From Squalus acanthias (Eukaryota): a stretch of DNA of 64,000 nucleotides. The position numbers were made by a program, and so were the translations under genes. Shown piece by piece: positions 3,935 through 63,873 of this stretch. The notes under the pieces were generated by a model that had not been told where the DNA came from, ran no database searches, and saw only the letters and a list, made by a program, of their open reading frames with translations. The DNA is taken from NCBI GenBank assembly GCA_030390025.1, contig JASTWF010000034.1, forward strand, positions 1,922,001-1,986,000, in the 5' to 3' direction. Every line of letters starts with the position of its first letter. Position 1 is the first letter of the stretch.

Positions 3935-5017
3935 TGTTAGATCAGAATTGGGACTTTTTCACAGGGGCCCACTTCTGACACCGGGACTAATTAAAGTCCT
4001 AAGAGGTCACCCCTGCTCCGGGTTTTACACAGGGGCCCACTTCTGACACCGGGACTAATTAAAGTCCTAAGAGGTCACCCCTGCTCCCGGCATCCCAATT
4101 ACTCACCAACGGGCCTAACTGTTACATCGAATTTGGAGCAAAACCAGACGGAGACGGAACTGAAGACAAAGTAAAAGTTTATTAGAAACTAGCCAGAAGG
4201 CTTTGTGCACAAAGGGAGAGAGGTTGATCTCCTCAGACTCGAACCTAACTCTCAAAGGAAAAACTACATACAAGCATTGATATACCTTTCGATATGCAAC
4301 ACCCACAGGTTACAAAAGTGGGCGTACACATACAAACAGCGTCGCTACCATTGCTCCCGTATTGGTTAATGATCAGTCACTCAATGTTGGGAGCCGCCCT
4401 GAAATGTTCTGTGACATTAAACATAACACATAATTGTTATACATGGGGCCTTCATCTAGTCTCTGGGAGCGAGGTCTACCAGACTCCATCTTGTCTCTTA
4501 AACAAGGTCGTACCACGCTTATCTCTCCTTTCCCATATTGTTGTATCTGACCAATACTTCGTTAATTCTCGAGAGAAGCTTATTATGATAAACAAGGTCT
4601 GCTCCAAAGGGAGATAAGGTGTTTGAGACCAAGAGAGAAATGGTCGACTCCCTGTACAGTTCAGTTTCCCTTGTCTCTTCAGAAGGCCAACTACATATAA
4701 ACACTGCTTCTGTAGCACTGATAACGACATTCTGAAATGCCTGGAAATCAGTGCTGTGGCACCAATAGTCTGGATTCTTGTTGTAAGCAGCGATTCTTAC
4801 AGTACTATTTAAAAAGGGTTAATATAATGGACAAAATAGTCCATCATGCTTTGCAACTATCTAAAAGCTATATGTACGTGTTGATATCTCCCTATAAGTG
4901 AATTAACTATCCTTTAAACATGATTTCTAATATTACTGCCCTACAGCCTTGGTTAGTATATATTTAAAGACTAGGGGATATAGGTTTCGTTTCACAGGCC
5001 TAATTTGCGATCCCACA
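3935..5017 (-). mobile_element. Solo LTR (1083 bp) related to the 55.2-62.4 kb element
   Basis: TG...CA termini with AGAA TSD (3931-3934, 5018-5021) in a CR1 tail; absent from the other three tandem units. 4120-4390 is clearly homologous to 55248-55520. Confidence 0.88.
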
Positions 5018-53069: not shown

Positions 53070-55247
53070 ACATAGAAACATAGAAGATAGGAGCAGGAGT
53101 TCAATGCGATCATGGCTGATCATCCAAACTCAGTACCCTGTACCTGCCTTCTCCCCATATCCCTTGATGCATTTAGCTTTAAGAAATATATCGAACTCAT
53201 TCTTGAATATATTTAATGACCAGGCCTCAACTACCTTCGGTGGTAGAGAATTCCACAGGTTCAGCACTCCCTGGGTGAAGAAATTCTTCCTCATTTCTGT
53301 CCTAAATGTCTTACCCCTTATACTTAGATTATGACCCCTGGTTCTGGACTCTCCGACCATCGGGAACATTCTTCCTGCATCTAGTTTGTCCAGACCTGTC
53401 AGAATTTTATATGTTTCGATGAGATCCCCTCTCATTCTTCTCTACTCCAGCGAGTATAAGCCCAATCGACCCAACCACTCCTCATATGTCATTCCTGCCA
53501 TCCCAGTTATAGCCTTGTGAATCTTCGCTGAACTCCTTCCATGGCAAGAACATCCTTCCACAGATAAGGCGACCAAAACTGCACACAGTACTCAAGGTGT
53601 GGCCTCACCAAGGCCCTGTACAACTGCAGTAGGACATCCCTGTTCCTGTACTCAAACCCTTTCGCTATGAAGGCCAACATACCAGTTGCCTTCTTCACCG
53701 CCTGCTGCACCTGCATGCTCACCTTCAGCGACTGGCGCACAAGGACACCCAGACGTCGTTGCACTTCCCCTTCTCCCAATCTATTGCCATTCAGATAATA
53801 TTTGCCTTTCTGTTTTTGTCACCAAAGTGGATAACCTCGCATTTATCCACGTTATATTGCATCTGCCACGCTTCTGCCCAATCACCCAACCTGTCCAAAT
53901 CATCCTGGAGTTTCTCGGTATCCTCGTCGCAGCACACACTCCCACCCGGCTTTGTGTCATCTGCAAACTTGGAGATATTACATTTAGTTCTCTTATCCAG
54001 ATCATTAATATATGTTGTCAATAGCTAGGGTCCAATGACCGATCCCTGCGGTACCCCACTAGTCACTGATTGCCACTCGGAAAAAGACCCATTAAATCCT
54101 ACTCTTTGCTTTCTGTCCGCCAACCAGTTCTCTATCCTTGCCCCCAATCCCATGTGCCTTAACTTTACACACTAATCTCTTATACAGGACCTTATCGAAA
54201 GCGTTTTGAAAGTCCAAATACACCACATCTACTGGTTCTCCCTTATCTATTTTCCCAGTTACATCCTCAAAAATTTCCAGTAGATTAGTCAAGCACGATT
54301 TACCTTTTGTCAATCCATGTTGACTTTGTCCGATCCAGTCACTGTTTTTCAAGTACTCAGCTATTACATCCTTTATAATGGACTCTAGCAATTTCCCCAC
54401 TACCGATGTCAGTCTTACCGGTCTGTAATTCCCCGCTTTCTCTCTGGCACCCTTTTTGAATAGTGGCGTAATATTAGCTACCCTCCAATCCATGGGTACA
54501 TTTCCAGATTCCATCGAATGTTGGAAGATGATCAGCAATGCATCTACTATTTCTAGGGCCAGTTCCTTAAGTACCCTAGGATGTAGATTATCAGGCCCTG
54601 GGGATTTATCGGCCTTCAATCCCGTCAATTTCCCTAACACCATTTCCCTGCAAATACTGATTTCTGTCAGTTCCTCCCTTTCATCAGACCGTATGTTATC
54701 CAGCATCTCTGGGAGGTTATTTGTTTCCTCCTTTGTGAAGACAGAACCAAAATATGCATTTAATTGGCCTGGCATTTCTTTGTTCCCCATTATAACTTCC
54801 CCCACTTCTGACTGCACGGCACCTACACTTGATTTCACTAATCTTTTTCTCTTCACATATCTATAAAGGCTCTTAGTCAGTTTTTATGTTCCCTGAAAGC
54901 TTACTTTCATATTCTATTTTCCCCTTCTTAATTAATCCCTTTGTCGTCCTTTGTTGAATCCTAAACTACTCCCAATCCTCAGGGCTACCGCTTTTTCTGG
55001 CCAATTTATATGCCCTCTCCTTGGATCTTATGCTATCCCTAATTTCCCTTGTTAGCCGCGTTTGAGTCACCCTTTTTGTTTTATTCTTATGCCACACTGG
55101 GATGAACAAATTTTGTAGTTCATCCATGCAGTCTTTGAATGTTTGCCATTGCCTATCCATCGTCAACCCTTTGAGTGACATTCCCCAATCAATCCTACTC
55201 AATTCGCGCCTCATATCATCGTAGTTTCCTTTATTTAAATTCAGGAC

Positions 55248-56058
55248 TGTTAGATTCGAATTTGGAGAAACTCTAGACGGAGACGGAATTGAGGACAAGT
55301 TCAGAATTTATTAAAATAAACAAAAGACTTGTGCACAAGGGAGAGCCACTCAGCTTCCTCAAGCTAGGGGCGCACTCTCTGAGGAACAAGTAACGGTTCA
55401 TTCAAGTTATACATTTCTATAAGCACCGCCTACTTACTACAGAATGGGGCATACACGTACAAACAGTGTCACTACAGTTACTCTCTATTGGTTATATGGT
55501 TAGTCACTCAACTGTCGGGCCCTCCCCTTGAACCCTGACCATGCCAGTCACAGATGTTGGTTGCCTCATCCTACTCCCCAAATTCTTGCTTTTATCTCTT
55601 CCTTTGCGGGCATAGTTTATAGTTTGAGAAAACATATTTTATCCCTGGCTGTCGGACAGAGCGGGGTGGCTCAAGGCCGTAATGGCTTGGATGCTCAGTG
55701 ACTGGAACCGTGTTGGTCATTAATTGCTCCCTTATCTCTTGGGAGACCCGGTTCGAATAGTAGATGTACCCCCGTACCTGGAACTGTGTTGGTTGTTAAT
55801 TGCTCCCTTATCTCTTGGGAGGCCAGGCTGTGCTTTGACAATGGCTCTACTGAGGTTGTGAATACATATATTCCAAGGTTTGATAAGGGGAGAGAGGCAC
55901 CTTCCAGTCTACAAATATGCCTTAATTAGCTAAACCTACTATCTGAAATAAGTAGAGGGTAATGTAGTCAAGTATCCCAGCATTCTTTGGGAACAAGCAG
56001 GATCCTTCAGTAGTAGTCAAGTATCCCAGAGTTCTTTGGGAACAAGCTGGATCCTTCA
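55248..56058 (-). repeat. 3' LTR (811 bp)
   Basis: TGAAGG...CTAACA on minus; AATAAA at 55307-55312; CCAAT near 55490. Two substitutions versus the 5' LTR by eye. Confidence 0.97.
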
Positions 56059-56060
56059 GT

Positions 56061-56078
56061 CCCCCCTTCCAATCCCCC
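56061..56078 (-). other. Polypurine tract
   Basis: GGGGGATTGGAAGGGGGG followed by AC and then the TG of the 3' LTR. Confidence 0.85.
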
Positions 56079-56404
56079 GAAAAGGACCCTTGAAGGGGGT
56101 TGGAGAGTGTGCTCTCTACGCTAAATAGTGTGATAAGCTAGTGAGTGTATAATATGTCAGAAACGCATATAGGTTTTTCCCGGATCAGCTAGCACGAATG
56201 ATGAAGGTTTACCTATAAACCCACCCAATTTATTCTATACTTCCCCCTAGGCCTGTGGCTATTCCAGGTAGGCCGCACATTCCTTGCATATGGTCTGGTG
56301 TGAGTCCTGTCGGGGTGGCCACCCGTCTAGGCACCAGGTATGCATCAGATGAGTGAAGTTGCTATTTAGGCATTCCCCGATTCATTATATGATTGCTTCA
56401 TTAT

Positions 56405-58494
56405 TCATGCACATGATTTCTCCAACAAGTTGTCAAAATCATCATCTGAAACAATTGGAGTAGGAGCAGTACAAGCATTAACAGTTTTAACCACTTGGTT
56501 TGCAATTTGTTTAGCCCGAGTCCGTTTACATTTCCTGCATGTCATACACAACAAGATCAGGACAATTACTAACTGCACCACGACTAATACATGTGAAATC
56601 AATCGAATCCATGGATGGATCTGTATATTTAGTCCCCAGTCCCAAATGTCATCCAGCCATGTGGTCACCTTGATCGCGTCGATATCTTTCTTCAGATCCG
56701 TGTTCCGTTGTTGTAGAGTATAGTACACCTTCTGGGAGAGTCGTATCTCCTTTCTCAACTGCCTCAGGTGTTTGGGCAGGGGGGGTATAGGATACCCAAA
56801 GGTGTTGATGTAGTCCCATAATCCATACTTGATGTCTTCAGACACTTGAAGAAAGGTAATATCAAACTGGTGTATGTCCACCAATTCCTCATGTCCAATC
56901 CGTACCGGAACTGCAGGGGTGAAGCAGAACTCTGAACTGGGGATGTTGCAAGTTAGATTGGCATACTCAAACGTTTTCAGGTTGGTCGTCACACAGTATT
57001 CGCCTTTGCCGGCGTACGCCGCCTGGGTAGGCTTTGAGGCTGCGTCCAATGCTTCCATGGTGCAGTTAATTTCCATGCCTGTGTTATTAAAACCACATTG
57101 GGCTTGCGGGCTTTGGCTGATTGCATGCGGGCACATGATGATGGCATGTCTGGTGACGCATCCCTCCAGCTTAGTACCCATCCAGTCTCCTTTCACCATC
57201 ACTGCGTAAGGTAACATATTGTGGTAAGATATATGCATGCCATCTTTTAATATACCAATATTTTGTGCCTGATACACCTCCCGTCCTTGTGTCTCTGGTG
57301 TCATTACCGGGACGACCAGAATTAGCCCCAGGAATCCCCCCCCCCCGTCTGGTCTGCATTCAACCTGCGTGGGGAATACCCGTACCATGGCTCGGAATTG
57401 ACAAACTGTCATATTGAGGCTACTTAAGAGATGTTTGGGCGTTCCCGCCCCAGCGTGTCCGCGAGTCAGGGTCCCTTTTAACTGTTGGTTGGTAATCCAC
57501 AGGGGTACCTCCCCTGCCTGTATCTGTTCCAGGTTTTCTCGGGTTTGCTCCACTATCCAATTCCCATATGTGCTGCAAACGTCGTTTGCTGCTGCCTGCT
57601 GTGAGGCATTGTATTCTTCTTTAATTAACTTATTTATAGTCTGTGCGTGTGTTTCTAACACAGTAGCTATATCCTGGAGGTATACGGTTAATATCTTGTC
57701 CTCCTTTAACTCTTGGTCCTCATTCTTATTTTGCTCTTGTAAGATAGCTTTAATGCGGGAACCCAGATCCTGGACCTTCTGATCTACGGTAGCCAGATCA
57801 ATGGTGTTAACGACCGATGTGCCAGTGTTAAAAATCGTTGCTGCATCATTAACTAAAGACCTCTTACGTCGCCATACCCGCCGGCTTCCCTGTCTATATC
57901 CGCCTCCGCTACGATCCGCGCCTTGTTTCAATACCTGTGTTAGAAGGCGCTGGTATAACTGTTGGGTTTGTGGTGAGCACCAAGCAGGCAGGGCGGTGTT
58001 GGCCAGGTTTAGCACCACTGACACTAATTCATGACGCACGTTATCATACAATATATCCCCAGTACGGGTGAACACCAACCCACTAGCGGGTCCCTCTTTC
58101 ACGGGGGGGCAGGTCAGTGGCTCGCGCTCGGAGGGGAAAGGTGTTGTGGAAACCATTGGGGGCAGGGGTGTAGGGGGGGGGCACCCCAGTAGCAGCCGAT
58201 CACCAGCGGTAGCCCGGGCTCCTCGTATTGTTCTATGATTCCGAAAGTCTGACATCTCTCTGAGGTAGGCGTGCATGAGGGTTCCCAGTGCCTCGCATTA
58301 TTCTGACAGCATATCCTGTCCGTCTTCCCTGTGATTTTACTGGTACAAACTCCCCTGTGCGTTTTGTGTGGACCAGTAGTCATTTCACAGAAAAAGGGGG
58401 CTCCCGACCGGTCGACGCAGAACCCCAGTGCCGTGATGGGTGTTGTTTATTCACTGATCAGTATCCCTATCATTCCCATGATAAGCCACCCCAT
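56405..58494 (-). CDS. env: Envelope / class I fusion glycoprotein (F-like); 5' end carries one stop and one frameshift, the C-terminal ~590 codons are open
   Basis: Kozak ACCATGG at 58494 with hydrophobic leader MGWLIMGMIGILISE*. Furin site RRKR at 57871-57860, then fusion peptide and heptad repeat, Cys-rich region, Trp-rich membrane-proximal region, TM ISHVLVVVQLVIVLILLC and tail. Confidence 0.9.
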
Positions 58495-58734
58495 GGTTAT
58501 CCTATACCACCGCTAGGCAGAAGGAGTCCGATTCGTTTATCTGTCTCGACACTAGCTTGTACAGTAGTAACTAGCAGGCTCTCTCTCTCTCTCTCTCTCT
58601 CTCCCTGTTTGTCCTGGTATTGGCCGTGTGCGCAGGGCTCGGAGCGGGGTTAAGGCTACTTCATACGTGGCATTGAGGCGGAGACGATGGCCTTGTGACA
58701 GTGGCTCAATGTAACTTACCTGACTTAACGTGAT

Positions 58735-59148
58735 TCAGTAAGGGTTAGGAGCTGTCGGACGGGGATGGGTGAAGACAGGTTGCACTGTCCTCCTTCGGAG
58801 GTAGGAGGGCCTATAATAGGGAGTGGATATCCCCTGGGGAAGGTCCTCCAGTCCTGACTCCAGCGGTTCCCAAAGAGCAGCTGTATCTCGGAACCGGTCT
58901 GTCTCCCCTGCACGGGGTAGGGTGAATAAAAGAGTCTGAGTTCTGTTGGGATGTAAAGCGAGGGGTCCGGTGGCCCTACCACAAAAGGAAGATAACCGGA
59001 ACTCTAGAGTCAAGGGGTGAATCCCGGGGAAGGTTAGAGTCGTATAATAATGTGAGTTCGTGGGATCCCTGGTTAAGTCGAAAGCCTGGACCGTAGAAAG
59101 GTCGACATCTCCGGTAGTGGTGGCAGTACTGAGGTCGGACCCACTCAT
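58735..59148 (-). CDS. Putative 137-aa accessory protein of unknown function
   Basis: ATG lies immediately after a strong acceptor (TCTCTTTCTTACAG|ATG). A consensus donor CAG|GTAAGT follows 15 nt after the stop. Confidence 0.6.
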   Translation of the reverse strand: MSGSDLSTATTTGDVDLSTVQAFDLTRDPTNSHYYTTLTFPGIHPLTLEFRLSSFCGRATGPLALHPNRTQTLLFTLPRAGETDRFRDTAALWEPLESGLEDLPQGISTPYYRPSYLRRRTVQPVFTHPRPTAPNPY

Positions 59149-59670
59149 CTGTAAGAAAGAGACAGGTAAAATAGCAACCCGAGGAACCGACTTAATCCTT
59201 CGAAATCCGGTTCTGATCAAGTATAGGGGAGAAAAGGCAGGTCAATACTTGTTTTTATTTCTTTTTAATTGTAAAACGAACACAACAGATATGTCTTTAG
59301 AAGGGTTGACAGCTTAAAAGGGTTAACAGCTTTTAGCTCTCTGTACCAAAAGGTGGGTGGAGCTAACAGATACAACATACATTTCCTCAAAAGGGTAAAC
59401 AGCTTTTAGCTCTCTGTACCAAAAGGTGGGTGGAGCTAACAGATACAACAGGCACCCTTTTTAAAACAGACTTTCAGACCAAGGAAATACCGTAACTTCT
59501 TAGAGTTTATAGTCAGGAAACTTTCACACAGACTTTCACACAGACTTACACACAGACTGAGATCTCAGCATTCCCTTTAAGATTCCTTTCGCTCAGCAAA
59601 TTCTGGATTTTACTTTTTTTTTTATTCTCCAAGAGGTGGGGAAATCTCTTCCCCGGGCCCCGTCACTGGC

Positions 59671-60941
59671 TTAGTCTGGCTCCATTTTAATACCCCCGGG
59701 TGCCTTGGTGGACCAGGGCAGAGAAGCTGGGGTGAATCCTTGACCGGAGGCATGAAGGTCTGTCTGGTGAAGCCCAAAGAGTCGACAAGCCCACTCCCGG
59801 ATTCCGGCCTCCGTGGGCTGGGGGCTGGCCCCCATTCGGAGGGCGGTTTGGTAGGGCTTTTCCAGCCCCTGGAGTAGATTATCTAAGAACCGTGGGTCGT
59901 CATGATTAGCGGGAATGTTATTCGTCTGGCCCCAATGTTCATTCTGCTCGATTACTCGATCAATGTACACATTGGGGTTTTCTCCGGGACTCTGGCGCAG
60001 GGCGGTGAGCCCCGCCCAGGTAGCGGTGCCGTTGCCCAGTCCAGCCTGCGCCCAGGTTTTTAAACCATTGAATTGGATCTCATACTCTGCTACCGTGGCT
60101 GGGACATTTAAGACATGGGGTCCCAATGTCCCATAAACCATAGAGGGACATTTTACCTCGATAATATCTTTTATGTCTTGTATGGACAAATTAAAGTGCC
60201 GAGCAGCACTTCGTATTTTTGCCCATACTTCGACGTTAGGATTGTATCTTTTGAGGTCGTGTTCGAGGAGGATGACACTGGATCTCTCCTGGGGCGTAAA
60301 AGAATGAGCCTCGCCCATCGTACCCCGTCCACCTATCTCTGCATTTTGGGCTCCTGCTGCCGGATTAACTCGGACGGGGGCCGTGGGGTTGGATTTTCCT
60401 GCCCCAGACTGAAGCGGTAAGGTGGGATAGATACGAGTGTATTCGGGGGGGGGCACGTGGGTTGGATGGCTTCAACTCGTTGAACCTTTACGGTCCCCGA
60501 TGGGGGCCGGGGTTCTAGGATCGGTGTGTCTCGAGTCTCCTTTTGTAGAGCCTCAACAATGTCCCCCCAGTTTTTCAAATCATCTAGATTCTCAGTCCCT
60601 GGTGACTTAAGGTGCAGGAGATTGCTAACTTGGACTTTAACCTCCTGCATAGGTCTCAAGAATCCTTGAAACGGGGTCGGTCTTCCCCCCTTATCCACGA
60701 TTATAGATCCCATCTGATCCATCCAACTAATACACAGAACCGCCCCGTACTTAGCTTGTTTGGCTTATTTTTGTTCCGCCCACCACTTTATTTGGTCAGC
60801 TACTGAGCTTGTTTCTTTCCACCCCTTTTTAACCATTTCACTCTGAAGTTTCAAATTAGCCTCTCGGACCTGTTGAACGACAGTGACACTGGTGGCCATA
60901 GCCGGAACGTCGGGTGAAAGAGATCTCCCCTTGTTTCCCAT
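59671..60941 (-). CDS. gag: Gag (one in-frame stop at 60765-60767, one frameshift in a C9 run at 60445-60453)
   Basis: MGNKGRS start; PPEY, YPTL and PTAP motifs; MHR-like RQSPGENPNVYIDRV followed by FLDNLLQGL. No CCHC knuckle seen. Confidence 0.88.
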
Positions 60942-61515
60942 GTGATCCATATTAATAGTCACGTGTATTCTTATACTCTATCTTATACTTTAATCGGCAC
61001 AAGCGACACAAACTTACACTCTAAACAGACTCTAACTTAAATCCCTCCGGGTCGTCACCCGGTATTTTGCGTACACTTAATCGTCACGGGATCACGATCC
61101 TGTGGTGTTTTAGTTCTCTACACCTACTTGATCCTGGCCGTCACGTGGGGCCCAATCGCCCTCTTAATTCAGGCTCAGGCTAGGTGTTTGAGATAGACAA
61201 CCACCCTTGTCCGTGTCGATCACCCGTGACTCTCAAGGATCCAATCTTATACTTTAAATCAGAAATATACACTTATCACCTTATACTCTAAATCAGAAAA
61301 AAAACACATGTCTAATCAATTCCGTCAGTCCGGTCTCCGTGAGGAATAATTTAAGTTGTGGGTACTTTTATACTGACTGAACCATAAACGGTTTTAGCCC
61401 CACCGGTGACGAGCGAGTCCTTGTTCCTCCTAAAAGCCTTACTCTGGCTTTTCCCTTAGGACACGACATGGTTCTCGCTTTAACCGTCACTTCCTGTGTC
61501 TTTAACTCCTATGGT

Positions 61516-61524
61516 CCTTACCTG
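61516..61524 (-). promoter_or_regulatory. Putative major splice donor
   Basis: CAG|GTAAGG, with the junction 7 nt downstream of the PBS. Confidence 0.7.
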
Positions 61525-61528
61525 CAGT

Positions 61529-61546
61529 ATCCCACTTCTGACACCA
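61529..61546 (-). other. Primer-binding site, tRNA-Leu(CAA)
   Basis: TGGTGTCAGAAGTGGGAT is complementary to the 3' 18 nt (ATCCCACTTCTGACACCA) of vertebrate tRNA-Leu-CAA and lies 2 nt (GT) from the 5' LTR. Confidence 0.93.
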
Positions 61547-61548
61547 AC

Positions 61549-62359
61549 TGTTAGATTCGAATTTGGAGAAACTCTAGACGGAGACGGAATTGAGGACAAG
61601 TTCAGAATTTATTAAAATAAACAAAAGACTTGTGCACAAGGGAGAGCCACTCAGCTTCCTCAAGCTAGGGGCGCACTCTCTGAGGAACAAGTAACGGTTC
61701 ATTCAAGTTATACATTTCTATAAGCACCGCCTACTTACTACAGAATGGGGCGTACACGTACAAACAGTGTCACTACAGTTACTCTCTATTGGTTATATGG
61801 TTAGTCACTCAACTGTCGGGCCCTCCCCTTGAACCCTGACCATGCCAGTCACAGATGTTGGTTGCCTCATCCTACTCCCCAAATTCTTGCTTTTATCTCT
61901 TCCTTTGCGGGCATAGTTTATAGTTTGAGAAAACATATTTTATCCCTGGCTGTCGGACAGAGCGGGGTGGCTCAAGGCCGTAATGGCTTGGATGCTCAGT
62001 GACTGGAACCGTGTTGGTCATTAATTGCTCCCTTATCTCTTGGGAGACCCGGTTCGAATAGTAGATGTACCCCCGTGCCTGGAACTGTGTTGGTTGTTAA
62101 TTGCTCCCTTATCTCTTGGGAGGCCAGGCTGTGCTTTGACAATGGCTCTACTGAGGTTGTGAATACATATATTCCAAGGTTTGATAAGGGGAGAGAGGCA
62201 CCTTCCAGTCTACAAATATGCCTTAATTAGCTAAACCTACTATCTGAAATAAGTAGAGGGTAATGTAGTCAAGTATCCCAGCATTCTTTGGGAACAAGCA
62301 GGATCCTTCAGTAGTAGTCAAGTATCCCAGAGTTCTTTGGGAACAAGCTGGATCCTTCA
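61549..62359 (-). repeat. 5' LTR (811 bp)
   Basis: Direct repeat of 55248-56058. Confidence 0.97.
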
Positions 62360-63873
62360 GGACCCTAGTCTCTGATTCAACTACTTCACCCTCCATCCTA
62401 ATGAAGAATTCTATCATATTATGATTACTCTGACCCAAGGGGCCTCGTACAACAAGATTGCTAATTAATCCTTTCTCGTTACATAATACCCAGTCTAAGA
62501 TGGCCTGATATCTGTTGGTTCCTCGACATATTGTTTCAGAAAACCATGACGTAAACATTCCAGGAATTCCTCCTCCACAGTATTTTTACTAATTTGGTTA
62601 GCCCCATCTATATGTAAATTAAAGTCACCCATGATGACTGCTGTACCCTTACGGCATGCTTCTCTAATTTCCCTTTTATTGCCGTCCCCAACCTCCGTAT
62701 TACTGTTTGGAGGTCTATATAACACTCCCACAAACGTTTTCTGCCCCTTGTTATATCTCAGTTCTACACATACAGATTCCACATTATCAGAGCTAATATC
62801 CTTCCTTTCAATTGTGTTAATCCCCTCTTTAACCAGCAATGCTACCCCACCTCCCTTTCTTTTTTGCCCATCTTTCCTAAATATTGAATAACCCTGGATG
62901 TTGAGTTCCCAGCCTTGGCCACCCTGGCGCCATGTTTCTGTAATCCAAATCAAATCGTATTCATTAACCTCTATTTGCGCAGCTAATTCATCCACCCTCC
63001 CCAACAGCACTCGCAAACACTCCCCCGAGGACATCGGACCCGGCCCTGCCCAGGTGCAGACCGTCCCGTTTGTACTGCTCCCACCTCCCCCAGAACCGGT
63101 TCCAATGTCCAAGGAATTTCAATCCCTCCCCCTTGCACCATTCCTCTAGCCACGTATTCATTTGAAATATCCTCCTATTTCAACTCAGACTTCCACATGG
63201 CACAGGTAGCAATCCTGAGATTACTACCTTTGAGGTCCTATTTTTTAATTTACCTCCTAACTCCCTATATTCTGCTTTTAGGACCTCATCCCGTTTTTTA
63301 CCTATATCGTTGATGCCTATGTGCACCACGACAACTGGCTGTTCGCCCCCCTCCCTCCAAAATGTTCTGTAGCCGCTCCGAGACGTCCTTGACCCTTGCA
63401 CCAGGGAGGCAACACACCATCCTGTAGTCTCGTTGTGGCCGCAGAAACGCCTATCTATTCCCCTTACAATTTAATCCCGTATCACTATAGCTCTTCCACA
63501 CTTTTTCCTCACAGCCTGTGCAGCAGAGCCACCCATGGTGCCAGGAAGTTGGCTCTGCTGCCTGCCCCTGATAAGTCATCTCCCCCAACAGCATCCAAAG
63601 TGGTATATCTGTTTGAGAGGGGGATGGCCACAGGGGACCCCTGCACTAACTGCCTGCACCTCTTCCTCTGCCTGGTGGTCACCCATTCACTTCCTGCCTG
63701 TACACCCTTTACCTGCGGTGTGACCAACTCGCTAAACATGTTATCCACGACGTTCTCAGCGTCGCGAATGCTCCAATATGCATCCATCCGCAGCTCCAGT
63801 GCTGCAATGCGGTCCATCAGTAGCTGCAGCTGGATACACTTCCCACACACATGGTCGTCAGGGACACAGGACG

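Follow-up and report, generated by a model that had tools for sequence, protein, structure and literature searches.

How a provirus that has gag and env and lacks pol comes to multiply in a genome is the question raised by an insertion in Squalus acanthias, located in a window of 64,000 nucleotides (NCBI GenBank assembly GCA_030390025.1, contig JASTWF010000034.1, positions 1,922,001 to 1,986,000 of the forward strand). The provirus is 7,112 bp long and occupies the minus strand of window positions 55248–62359, reading from w62359 to w55248, where the prefix w marks a coordinate within the window; the prefixes L, C and X denote loci and contigs of the shark genome (G000) and sequencing runs, respectively. 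A first-pass annotation of the same sequence had described an organised, structural-genes-only retroviral lineage, recently mobilised by a helper Pol and possibly one half of a bipartite system with a pol-bearing, env-less partner. The evidence presented here indicates that the element is very probably one copy of a defective, helper-dependent, pol-deleted morph of a young cartilaginous-fish endogenous retrovirus (ERV). Two features define the deletion:

59622..59684, minus strand: final 20 integrase codons with their stop (integrase tail), the sole pol remnant (about 60 nt)
59678..59684, minus strand: deletion junction, the 7-nt microhomology TGGAGCC, common to the gag and integrase sides of the pol-bearing siblings

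No match to RVT_1, RVP, RNase_H or rve is found in the four large and two small open reading frames (ORFs) of the element, and no protease (PR), reverse transcriptase (RT), RNase H (RH) or integrase (IN) domain is detected in the 17 spacer frames searched, out of 24 stop-to-stop frames of at least 40 aa. Across these ORFs and frames the element has no pol coding capacity, and the earlier statement that the spacer is free of pol stands for the domains and fails for the integrase tail, which is a trivial remnant. The heptamer TGGAGCC occurs once in the window element and at both the gag and integrase sides in pol-bearing siblings, and the deletion spans 3.8 kb, from the nucleocapsid (NC) to near the end of integrase.

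The siblings were reached through the extra 477 bp of three copies with a different junction, which led to pol-bearing relatives. Three of at least six pol-bearing copies were read (L051, L052 and L053); these share the primer binding site (PBS) of the window element, are 98.4, 97.3 and 96.9% identical to it, respectively, in long terminal repeat (LTR), leader and gag, and hold 3.0–3.8 kb of NC-PR-RT-RH-IN at precisely the point where the junction lies in the window element. The pol-bearing elements with a shared PBS for which the first-pass annotation had proposed to look are thus present. In L052, gag runs on through two CCHC knuckles (zf-CCHC, E = 1.5e-11); next come an in-frame stop and a 957-aa ORF with RVP, RVT_1, RT_RNaseH_2, RNase_H and Integrase_H2C2 domains (PR-RT-tether-RH-IN), after which rve follows. 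The spacer, orfX and env also lie downstream of integrase in the pol-bearing copies, an env match being present downstream of pol in at least 3 of 6 siblings (C3267, C262 and C1846), and the gag-orfX-env layout is therefore that of the parent minus NC-to-IN. Thus, one microhomology deletion of a full provirus, leaving a Gag without zinc knuckles, explains what had been taken for an organised structural-genes-only genome, and no env-less pol-bearing partner is found among these siblings, which keep spacer, orfX and env. L051 (C262:150200-160190) comprises a pol-bearing copy and a solo LTR within a satellite with repeats that read open in every frame (GWLAGWTTERLW-like repeat). A separate group, ~90–93% identical, in which pol lacks an additional internal segment (pol-region query positions 1366 to 2398), is found in at least 13 places, on contigs C3, C1186, C15, C174, C12, C11, C504, C3273, C16, C306 and C3212.

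The deletion is present at many sites. A 30-nt pattern across the gag/integrase-tail junction of the window copy finds 41 genome sites (38 exact and 3 with 1–2 mismatches; reversed control, 0) spread over at least 30 contigs, and the intact gag-to-NC junction is found at 6. Copies were compared in a set of 16, namely the window copy and 15 fetched ones, of which 13 are of the window junction type and 3 of another; the 15 were picked from LTR pairs 5.7–7.0 kb apart and from spacer and env matches, so that the set is biased to short elements and the lack of pol in 15 of 15 reflects this choice, the unbiased figures being the LTR spacing and the two junction counts. Among the best 40 LTR matches, 12 of 12 same-contig LTR pairs are spaced 5.7–7.0 kb apart and none at ~10.9 kb, and pol DNA at 92% identity or more occupies about 8–12 genome places; the pol-less morph exceeds the parent by ~41 to 6–12. 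The fetched copies are 97–99% identical to the window element along its length, and 14 of the 16 (window copy included) have their own 4-bp target-site duplication, the other two being situated in tandem LTR-internal-LTR arrays. Among these 14, LTR-pair mismatches number 0 in six, 1 in four, 2 in two (three counting the window copy), 5 in one and 9 in one. The same deletion at this number of independent sites upholds the earlier view of a pol-less lineage, not a one-off, for which a count of copies at distinct duplications had been proposed, and the six identical LTR pairs agree with its recent mobilisation. The 1,394-bp spacer is matched in 40 places, a count in which the morphs are not separable, as pol-bearing copies too have the spacer behind integrase; the apparent 89–91% subfamily of the spacer consists mostly of copies with one fewer 73-bp repeat. 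Tandem arrays (LTR-internal-LTR-internal) are seen at C29:9451111-9470809, with four LTRs at 6.29-kb spacing, at C20:13697019-13704542, and at L041 and L042, and in the latter two loci the 3′ LTR leads straight into a PBS.

Polymorphisms are shared between the two morphs. Of the sites in the first 2,682 nt, 47 vary in at least two of the 13 window-type copies, and at 18 of the 47 the same two alleles segregate among the three pol-bearing copies (six of these being transversions), with 0 fixed differences between pol-less and pol-bearing morphs. Such a pattern fits co-packaging and recombination of helper and defective RNAs. The absence of pol, together with these shared alleles, points to dependence on Pol in trans, and this part of the first-pass interpretation is probably correct given the existence of siblings that match in LTR, PBS, leader and gag.

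Taken together, these data suggest the following course. The parent is a ~10.9-kb provirus of the order LTR-PBS-gag-(in-frame stop)-pro-pol-orfX-env-LTR, from which a single 3.8-kb deletion over the 7-nt microhomology removed NC, protease, RT, RNase H and integrase except its last 20 codons, a template switch in reverse transcription being the likely cause. The deleted genome retains all cis signals, that is, the LTRs, PBS, leader and 5′ gag, splice sites and polypurine tract, and is probably transcribed; packaging, reverse transcription and integration would then be performed by Gag-Pol supplied in trans from the pol-bearing sisters or their exogenous form, and such a trans-mobilised cycle would yield new copies with 4-bp duplications. 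The signals that this course calls for in the window copy are as follows:

62360..62363, minus strand: target-site duplication GTCC, upstream copy, 4 bp
61549..62359, minus strand: 5′ LTR, 811 bp, TG..CA, with TATAAA at element position 438 and AATAAA at 747
61529..61546, minus strand: PBS, 18 nt, separated from the LTR by 2 nt and complementary to the 3′ end of a tRNA-like sequence
61516..61528, minus strand: splice donor CAG/GTAAG, exon end at w61522, with a GT..AG joint in an X11 contig
59313..59450, minus strand: direct repeat, 65 nt twice, at 73-bp spacing
59140..59158, minus strand: splice acceptor, a polypyrimidine tract followed by AG, adjoining the orfX ATG at w59148
56061..56078, minus strand: polypurine tract, 2 nt ahead of the 3′ LTR
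55248..56058, minus strand: 3′ LTR, 811 bp, with 2 mismatches and no indel relative to the 5′ LTR
55244..55247, minus strand: target-site duplication GTCC, downstream copy, 4 bp

Every cis signal named in the first-pass annotation (811-bp LTRs with 2 differences, TG..CA ends, 4-bp duplication, 18-nt PBS and polypurine tract) is confirmed, and together these identify an LTR provirus. Removal of one duplication copy joins both flanks (window 62360–63034 and 54966–55247) into a single ORF2 reading frame of a long interspersed nuclear element (LINE), which demonstrates that the element is a true insertion; the upstream LINE flank holds an Exo_endo_phos domain (E = 7e-10). The sequence formed by four T-loop bases and, after them, the last 15 nt of the PBS complement occurs at 250 genome sites in tRNA-like clusters (reversed control, 0), and the tRNA is presumably tRNA-Leu(CAA). 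Long arrays of this PBS-complementary tRNA-like 3′ end, with a period of ~1.15 kb, are present at C13:49375889-49403665 and on C575. The direct repeat, small ORF and splice signals noted earlier are likewise present, the repeat having one copy fewer in 5 of 15 sister copies. Splicing is supported by a contig of run X11, presumed (as is X15) to be an RNA run, in which a GT..AG joint links w61522 to w59148, that is, the leader donor to the acceptor before the orfX ATG. In the same probable RNA run, a contig spans the pol-less junction (w59615–60073), and from a loose end at w59684 the sequence continues as the pol-bearing form. Elsewhere in the window, a 275-bp segment at 4117–4391 shares 72% identity with the LTR in its U5-proximal part and probably derives from an older, related LTR as a fragment, and the window also contains an assembly gap of 500 N.

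The coding regions of the window copy are shown below, and their state bears on whether the element could provide structural proteins to others:

59671..60950, minus strand: gag, cut off before NC, as three ORFs of 61, 129 and 215 aa in the window copy
58735..59148, minus strand: orfX, 137 aa, open, first among the ORFs of the spliced RNA and shared by the pol-bearing siblings
58447..58494, minus strand: true env start with signal peptide (MGWLIMGMIGILISE), ATG at w58494, with TAA at codon 16 in the window copy
56405..58276, minus strand: 623-aa ORF, env without the signal peptide and Cys-rich N-terminus, from the ORF list and sister comparison

Gag, named in the first-pass annotation as one of the genes, is not intact. 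The frame is split in the window copy by a TAA at codon 62 (w60767–60765), which is also present in sister L040, and by two additional nucleotides in the C-run at w60454–60444, the two extra C being missing from short-read contigs of 4 of 4 runs; a single 425-aa ORF is found in 7 of 13 sister copies of the window type. Beyond the junction, the integrase tail contributes three out-of-frame codons and a stop to the 3′ end of gag. As the deletion takes both NC zinc knuckles, the remaining Gag is truncated. Gag has no Pfam match, and the structure model of the 215-aa ORF of the window copy (mean predicted local distance difference test score, pLDDT, 39.3) is unusable for recognising a capsid fold; the reading frame is probably gag in view of its position, one shark homologue, and the NC knuckles and protease downstream of it in L052. 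For orfX, which has no known relatives, neither a Pfam match nor a usable look-alike in Atlas is obtained.

The 623-aa ORF, which had been taken as the real env, is a truncated one. In sister and related copies env opens at the ATG at w58494 (MGWLIMG...), 218 nt upstream of the start of this ORF, and in the window copy that native frame is cut by the stop at codon 16 (w58449–58447) and by a shift of two additional nucleotides in the C-run at w58182–58172 (C9), which leaves the 623-aa ORF as the truncated remainder. Its start is an internal, out-of-frame ATG, and its first ~30–35 codons lie in a frame unused by env; agreement with the env of the sisters begins at about residue 36, directly after the C-run. 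The remainder retains RRKR at residues 136–139, followed by a fusion-peptide-like stretch, and a transmembrane helix at about residues 554–580. Dead for both gag and env, the window copy is a passenger and does not serve as a source of structural proteins. Among all 16 copies as assembled, a complete env ORF is found in none, and in 10 of 16 the aligned env frame is free of nonsense codons. Of 20 distinct small indels in env, 11 fall in homopolymer runs, chiefly three (C9, C7 and G11). Runs at 57335–57347 (G11), 58102–58110 (C7), 58172–58182 (C9) and 60444–60454 (C9) differ in length among copies; these four cause most of the frameshifts, and their variation may stem from RT slippage or from assembly error. 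Secondary insertions are seen in two copies, one of 746 bp in the env of L040 and one of ~430 bp at element position ~1087 in L039.

Judging by the junctions, pol was lost and env kept on at least four separate occasions. A second morph of the young family (L035, L043 and L045, on C20, C240 and C1021) has gag codon ~57 joined to mid-integrase through a TGGTGG microhomology, and this junction is found at 3 genome sites with a separate 4-bp duplication at each. Among older relatives, L046/L050 and L047 (on C18, C6 and C16) are also pol-less and keep env, with yet other junctions. This older family has ~76% Env identity and the order LTR-leader-short pol scraps-env-LTR (~5.7 kb in L047), and intact env ORFs of 681 and 683 aa are found in L046 and L047, respectively. 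The env dN/dS between L046 and L047 is 0.22, which we do not take as selection in the pol-less state since their deletion junctions differ; dN/dS comparisons with the env of L050 are inflated by a frameshift. Related families that bear pol (L048 and L049) have env ~60% identical.

Several explanations other than passive mobilisation of a deletion morph by its full-length siblings have to be weighed. That the copies arose as a one-off deletion or by segmental duplication instead of retrotransposition is scarcely conceivable: a few copies do lie in tandem arrays (four LTRs at 6.29 kb on C29; L041 and L042) and some are close together (C3, C3416), as duplication would produce, but the 41 sites of identical junction on at least 30 contigs rule out a one-off deletion, and the 14 distinct target-site duplications rule out segmental duplication as the source of the copies. 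It is very unlikely that the mobilising Pol came from an unrelated retroelement family. No intact pol is present among the three sibling copies read, and related pol-bearing families reside in the genome (L048 and L049), as this explanation would have it; against it, the genome has siblings alike in LTR, PBS and leader, the 18 of 47 shared polymorphisms with no fixed difference need co-replication of the morphs, and both the 4-bp duplication and the PBS are in keeping with the class to which the family's integrase and RT belong. We regard as quite improbable a satellite or bipartite arrangement, in which the pol-less morph is kept under selection for its own proteins (Gag without NC, orfX and Env) and these supply or modulate the envelope or capsid of the helper. 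In its favour, pN/pS pooled over the pol-less copies comes to 0.51 in gag (78 pairs) and, with 120 pairs each, to 0.45 in orfX and 0.41 in env, shared variants are ~1:1 nonsynonymous:synonymous against a neutral ~3.4:1, gag is an unbroken ORF in 7 of 13 copies, the aligned env frame is free of nonsense codons in 10 of 16, and env is kept in all four independent deletion morphs; moreover, cis effects of retained gag are mentioned for IAP I-delta-1 (PMC10924933). On the other side, env is kept in the pol-bearing siblings and no env-less partner is seen, none of the 16 env ORFs is complete as assembled, both zinc knuckles are gone from Gag, gag and env of the window copy have nonsense codons, and the selection signal is importable from the helpers by recombination, for which there is direct evidence. 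The complementing pair proposed in the first-pass annotation, a bipartite system, is not supported. As for the gag and env dN/dS that it had proposed to compute, the pooled ratios indicate constraint, whereas private variants look neutral (66 of 96 nonsynonymous). The depletion of nonsynonymous changes in shared but not in private variants implies selection in the replicating population, not after insertion, and because of recombination the signal is not assignable to the own proteins of the pol-less genome. In its stronger form, a long-term satellite whose gag (without NC), orfX and F-type env (see below) are under purifying selection as their products raise its own transmission, the idea is unlikely. 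If true, the products of the satellite could supply envelope to helper cores or block superinfection, and the two genomes would constitute a two-genome retroviral population in a cartilaginous fish, with a class I-like backbone and a paramyxovirus-F-type fusogen.

Passive trans-mobilisation of a deleted morph by its siblings remains the preferred reading, and a number of points weigh against it. Among gag and env variants present in at least two copies, 31 of 58 are nonsynonymous against 0.77 expected (P = 6e-5; 0.006 against 0.70), a deficit that pure passive trans-mobilisation does not predict unless the variants recombined in from helpers; gag variants absent from the three helpers are 9:7 nonsynonymous:synonymous, the same ratio as for those present (5:5), in a comparison of low power. 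Gag-pro-pol is interrupted in 3 of 3 pol-bearing copies read, with no intact helper seen: by an RT-RNase H deletion in L051, by frameshifts in both gag and IN in L052, and by division of pol into 5 pieces in L053. The env frameshifts, many of them in three homopolymer runs, could be assembly errors, which makes the status of env across copies uncertain. Recurrence of the same microhomology deletion could in principle occur, and the RNA nature of X11 is a guess.

Defective morphs of this kind have precedents. ETn-, I-delta-1- and recKoRV-type morphs are trans-mobilised by full-length relatives and often outnumber the helper; ETn is without viral ORFs, I-delta-1 keeps a gag-pol fusion, and the centre of recKoRV is replaced by another element. 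To our knowledge, none of the three has a gag-orfX-env arrangement. ETn/MusD, IAP I-delta-1/IAP and recKoRV/KoRV-A are described as non-autonomous morphs within one ERV clade (PMC10924933), which resembles the shark pair. A close comparison is offered by cattle's ERVK[2-1-LTR] D-type described there, which outnumbers its autonomous C-type by 85% to 15% (~41 to 6–12 in the shark), has lost functional pol with flanking gag and env portions and LTRs kept, as has the shark morph, and recombines with the C-type, implying co-packaging, a trait also indicated by recombination in the shark (PMC10924933). The D-type is betaretrovirus-like and mammalian, its centre is replaced by unrelated sequence and it has no intact ORFs (PMC10924933), whereas the shark morph has a clean microhomology deletion, an NC-less gag that is often open, and an env full in length. 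In addition, mobilisation of the D-type was measured directly (PMC10924933), whereas that of the shark morph is deduced from sequence. Among fish, zebrafish BHIKHARI Bik-1/Bik-2 are alike in being recently active, non-autonomous and pol-less, with an open structural gene and dozens of near-identical insertions (bioRxiv 10.1101/2024.03.25.586437). Bik has gag only and no env, is lokiretrovirus-related, and has a Gag with a coiled coil and glycine-rich tail (bioRxiv 10.1101/2024.03.25.586437), whereas the shark parent has two CCHC knuckles and its morph keeps env. The shark family thus represents a clean and very young cartilaginous-fish case of a defective retroviral morph overtaking its parent, a phenomenon documented mainly in mammals (mouse, cattle, koala). 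As the junction, the parent, a second independent morph and recombination traces are all readable in one genome, the family lends itself well, as a natural system, to the question of why deleted genomes win, and also to that of whether the gag and env ORFs that are kept make a difference in cis.

The class of the parental virus was approached through Pol and Env. The nearest solved structure to the RT is that of murine leukaemia virus/xenotropic murine leukaemia virus-related virus (MLV/XMRV; E = 4e-95). In a Pol tree of 42 rows and 561 columns rooted on gypsy, the query falls in a fish clade whose sister group is the Gag_p30-bearing ERVs, with class II outside, at a Shimodaira–Hasegawa-like approximate likelihood ratio test (SH-aLRT) value of 92 (not starred); the tree carries a long-branch warning for class II and gypsy, and is without named epsilon, spuma or lokiretrovirus references. 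In agreement with the RT grouping, the 4-bp duplication and the presence of gag and pol in one frame parted by one stop (L052) also indicate class I, both being gamma-/epsilonretrovirus traits. The gamma-type Env domain TLV_coat (PF00429) gives no match. Env likewise shows no match to the Pfam family Fusion_gly (PF00523) at E up to 1 for the window, L046 and L048 env, and no PDB sequence match. From the intact 681-aa env of the related L046, a model was obtained with a mean pLDDT of 64.6 and 325 residues at 70 or above, and with this model all 37 of the 37 Foldseek matches listed are paramyxovirus or pneumovirus F proteins (best E = 6e-11, probability 1.00), with TM-scores of only 0.18–0.33 by query length. 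On this model, the Env of the family is predicted to fold like the paramyxovirus/pneumovirus F protein. The combination of a class I-like Pol with an F-fold Env may reflect an env swap, or an epsilon-like Env type without structural description, and bears on how often retroviruses swapped fusogens.

F-like Env is known for lokiretroviruses (PMC7947760; PMC13524379), and exogenous epsilonretroviruses are said to have a distinct non-gamma Env (PMC9967133). Our literature search found F-like Env only for lokiretroviruses and invertebrate elements, which is no proof that the class I/F combination is unpublished; in the main text of PMC7947760 the words 'shark' and 'cartilaginous' are absent. The lokiretrovirus Env resembles the shark Env in its signal peptide, RXKR-type site, fusion peptide, coiled coil, transmembrane segment and F relationship (PMC7947760). 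Two differences are apparent. The lokiretrovirus Env matches PF00523 by sequence (PMC7947760), whereas that of the shark element does not, and the lokiretrovirus RT is placed as sister to all retroviruses (PMC7947760), whereas shark Pol stands inside the retroviruses, beside Gag_p30-bearing class I with class II excluded (SH-aLRT 92, in a tree without a lokiretrovirus sequence).

Finally, runs X1–X20, labelled as six organisms, hold 30%–61% of the sampled 31-mers of the element, and judging from these k-mers the element family or very close relatives of it extend beyond one organism label.

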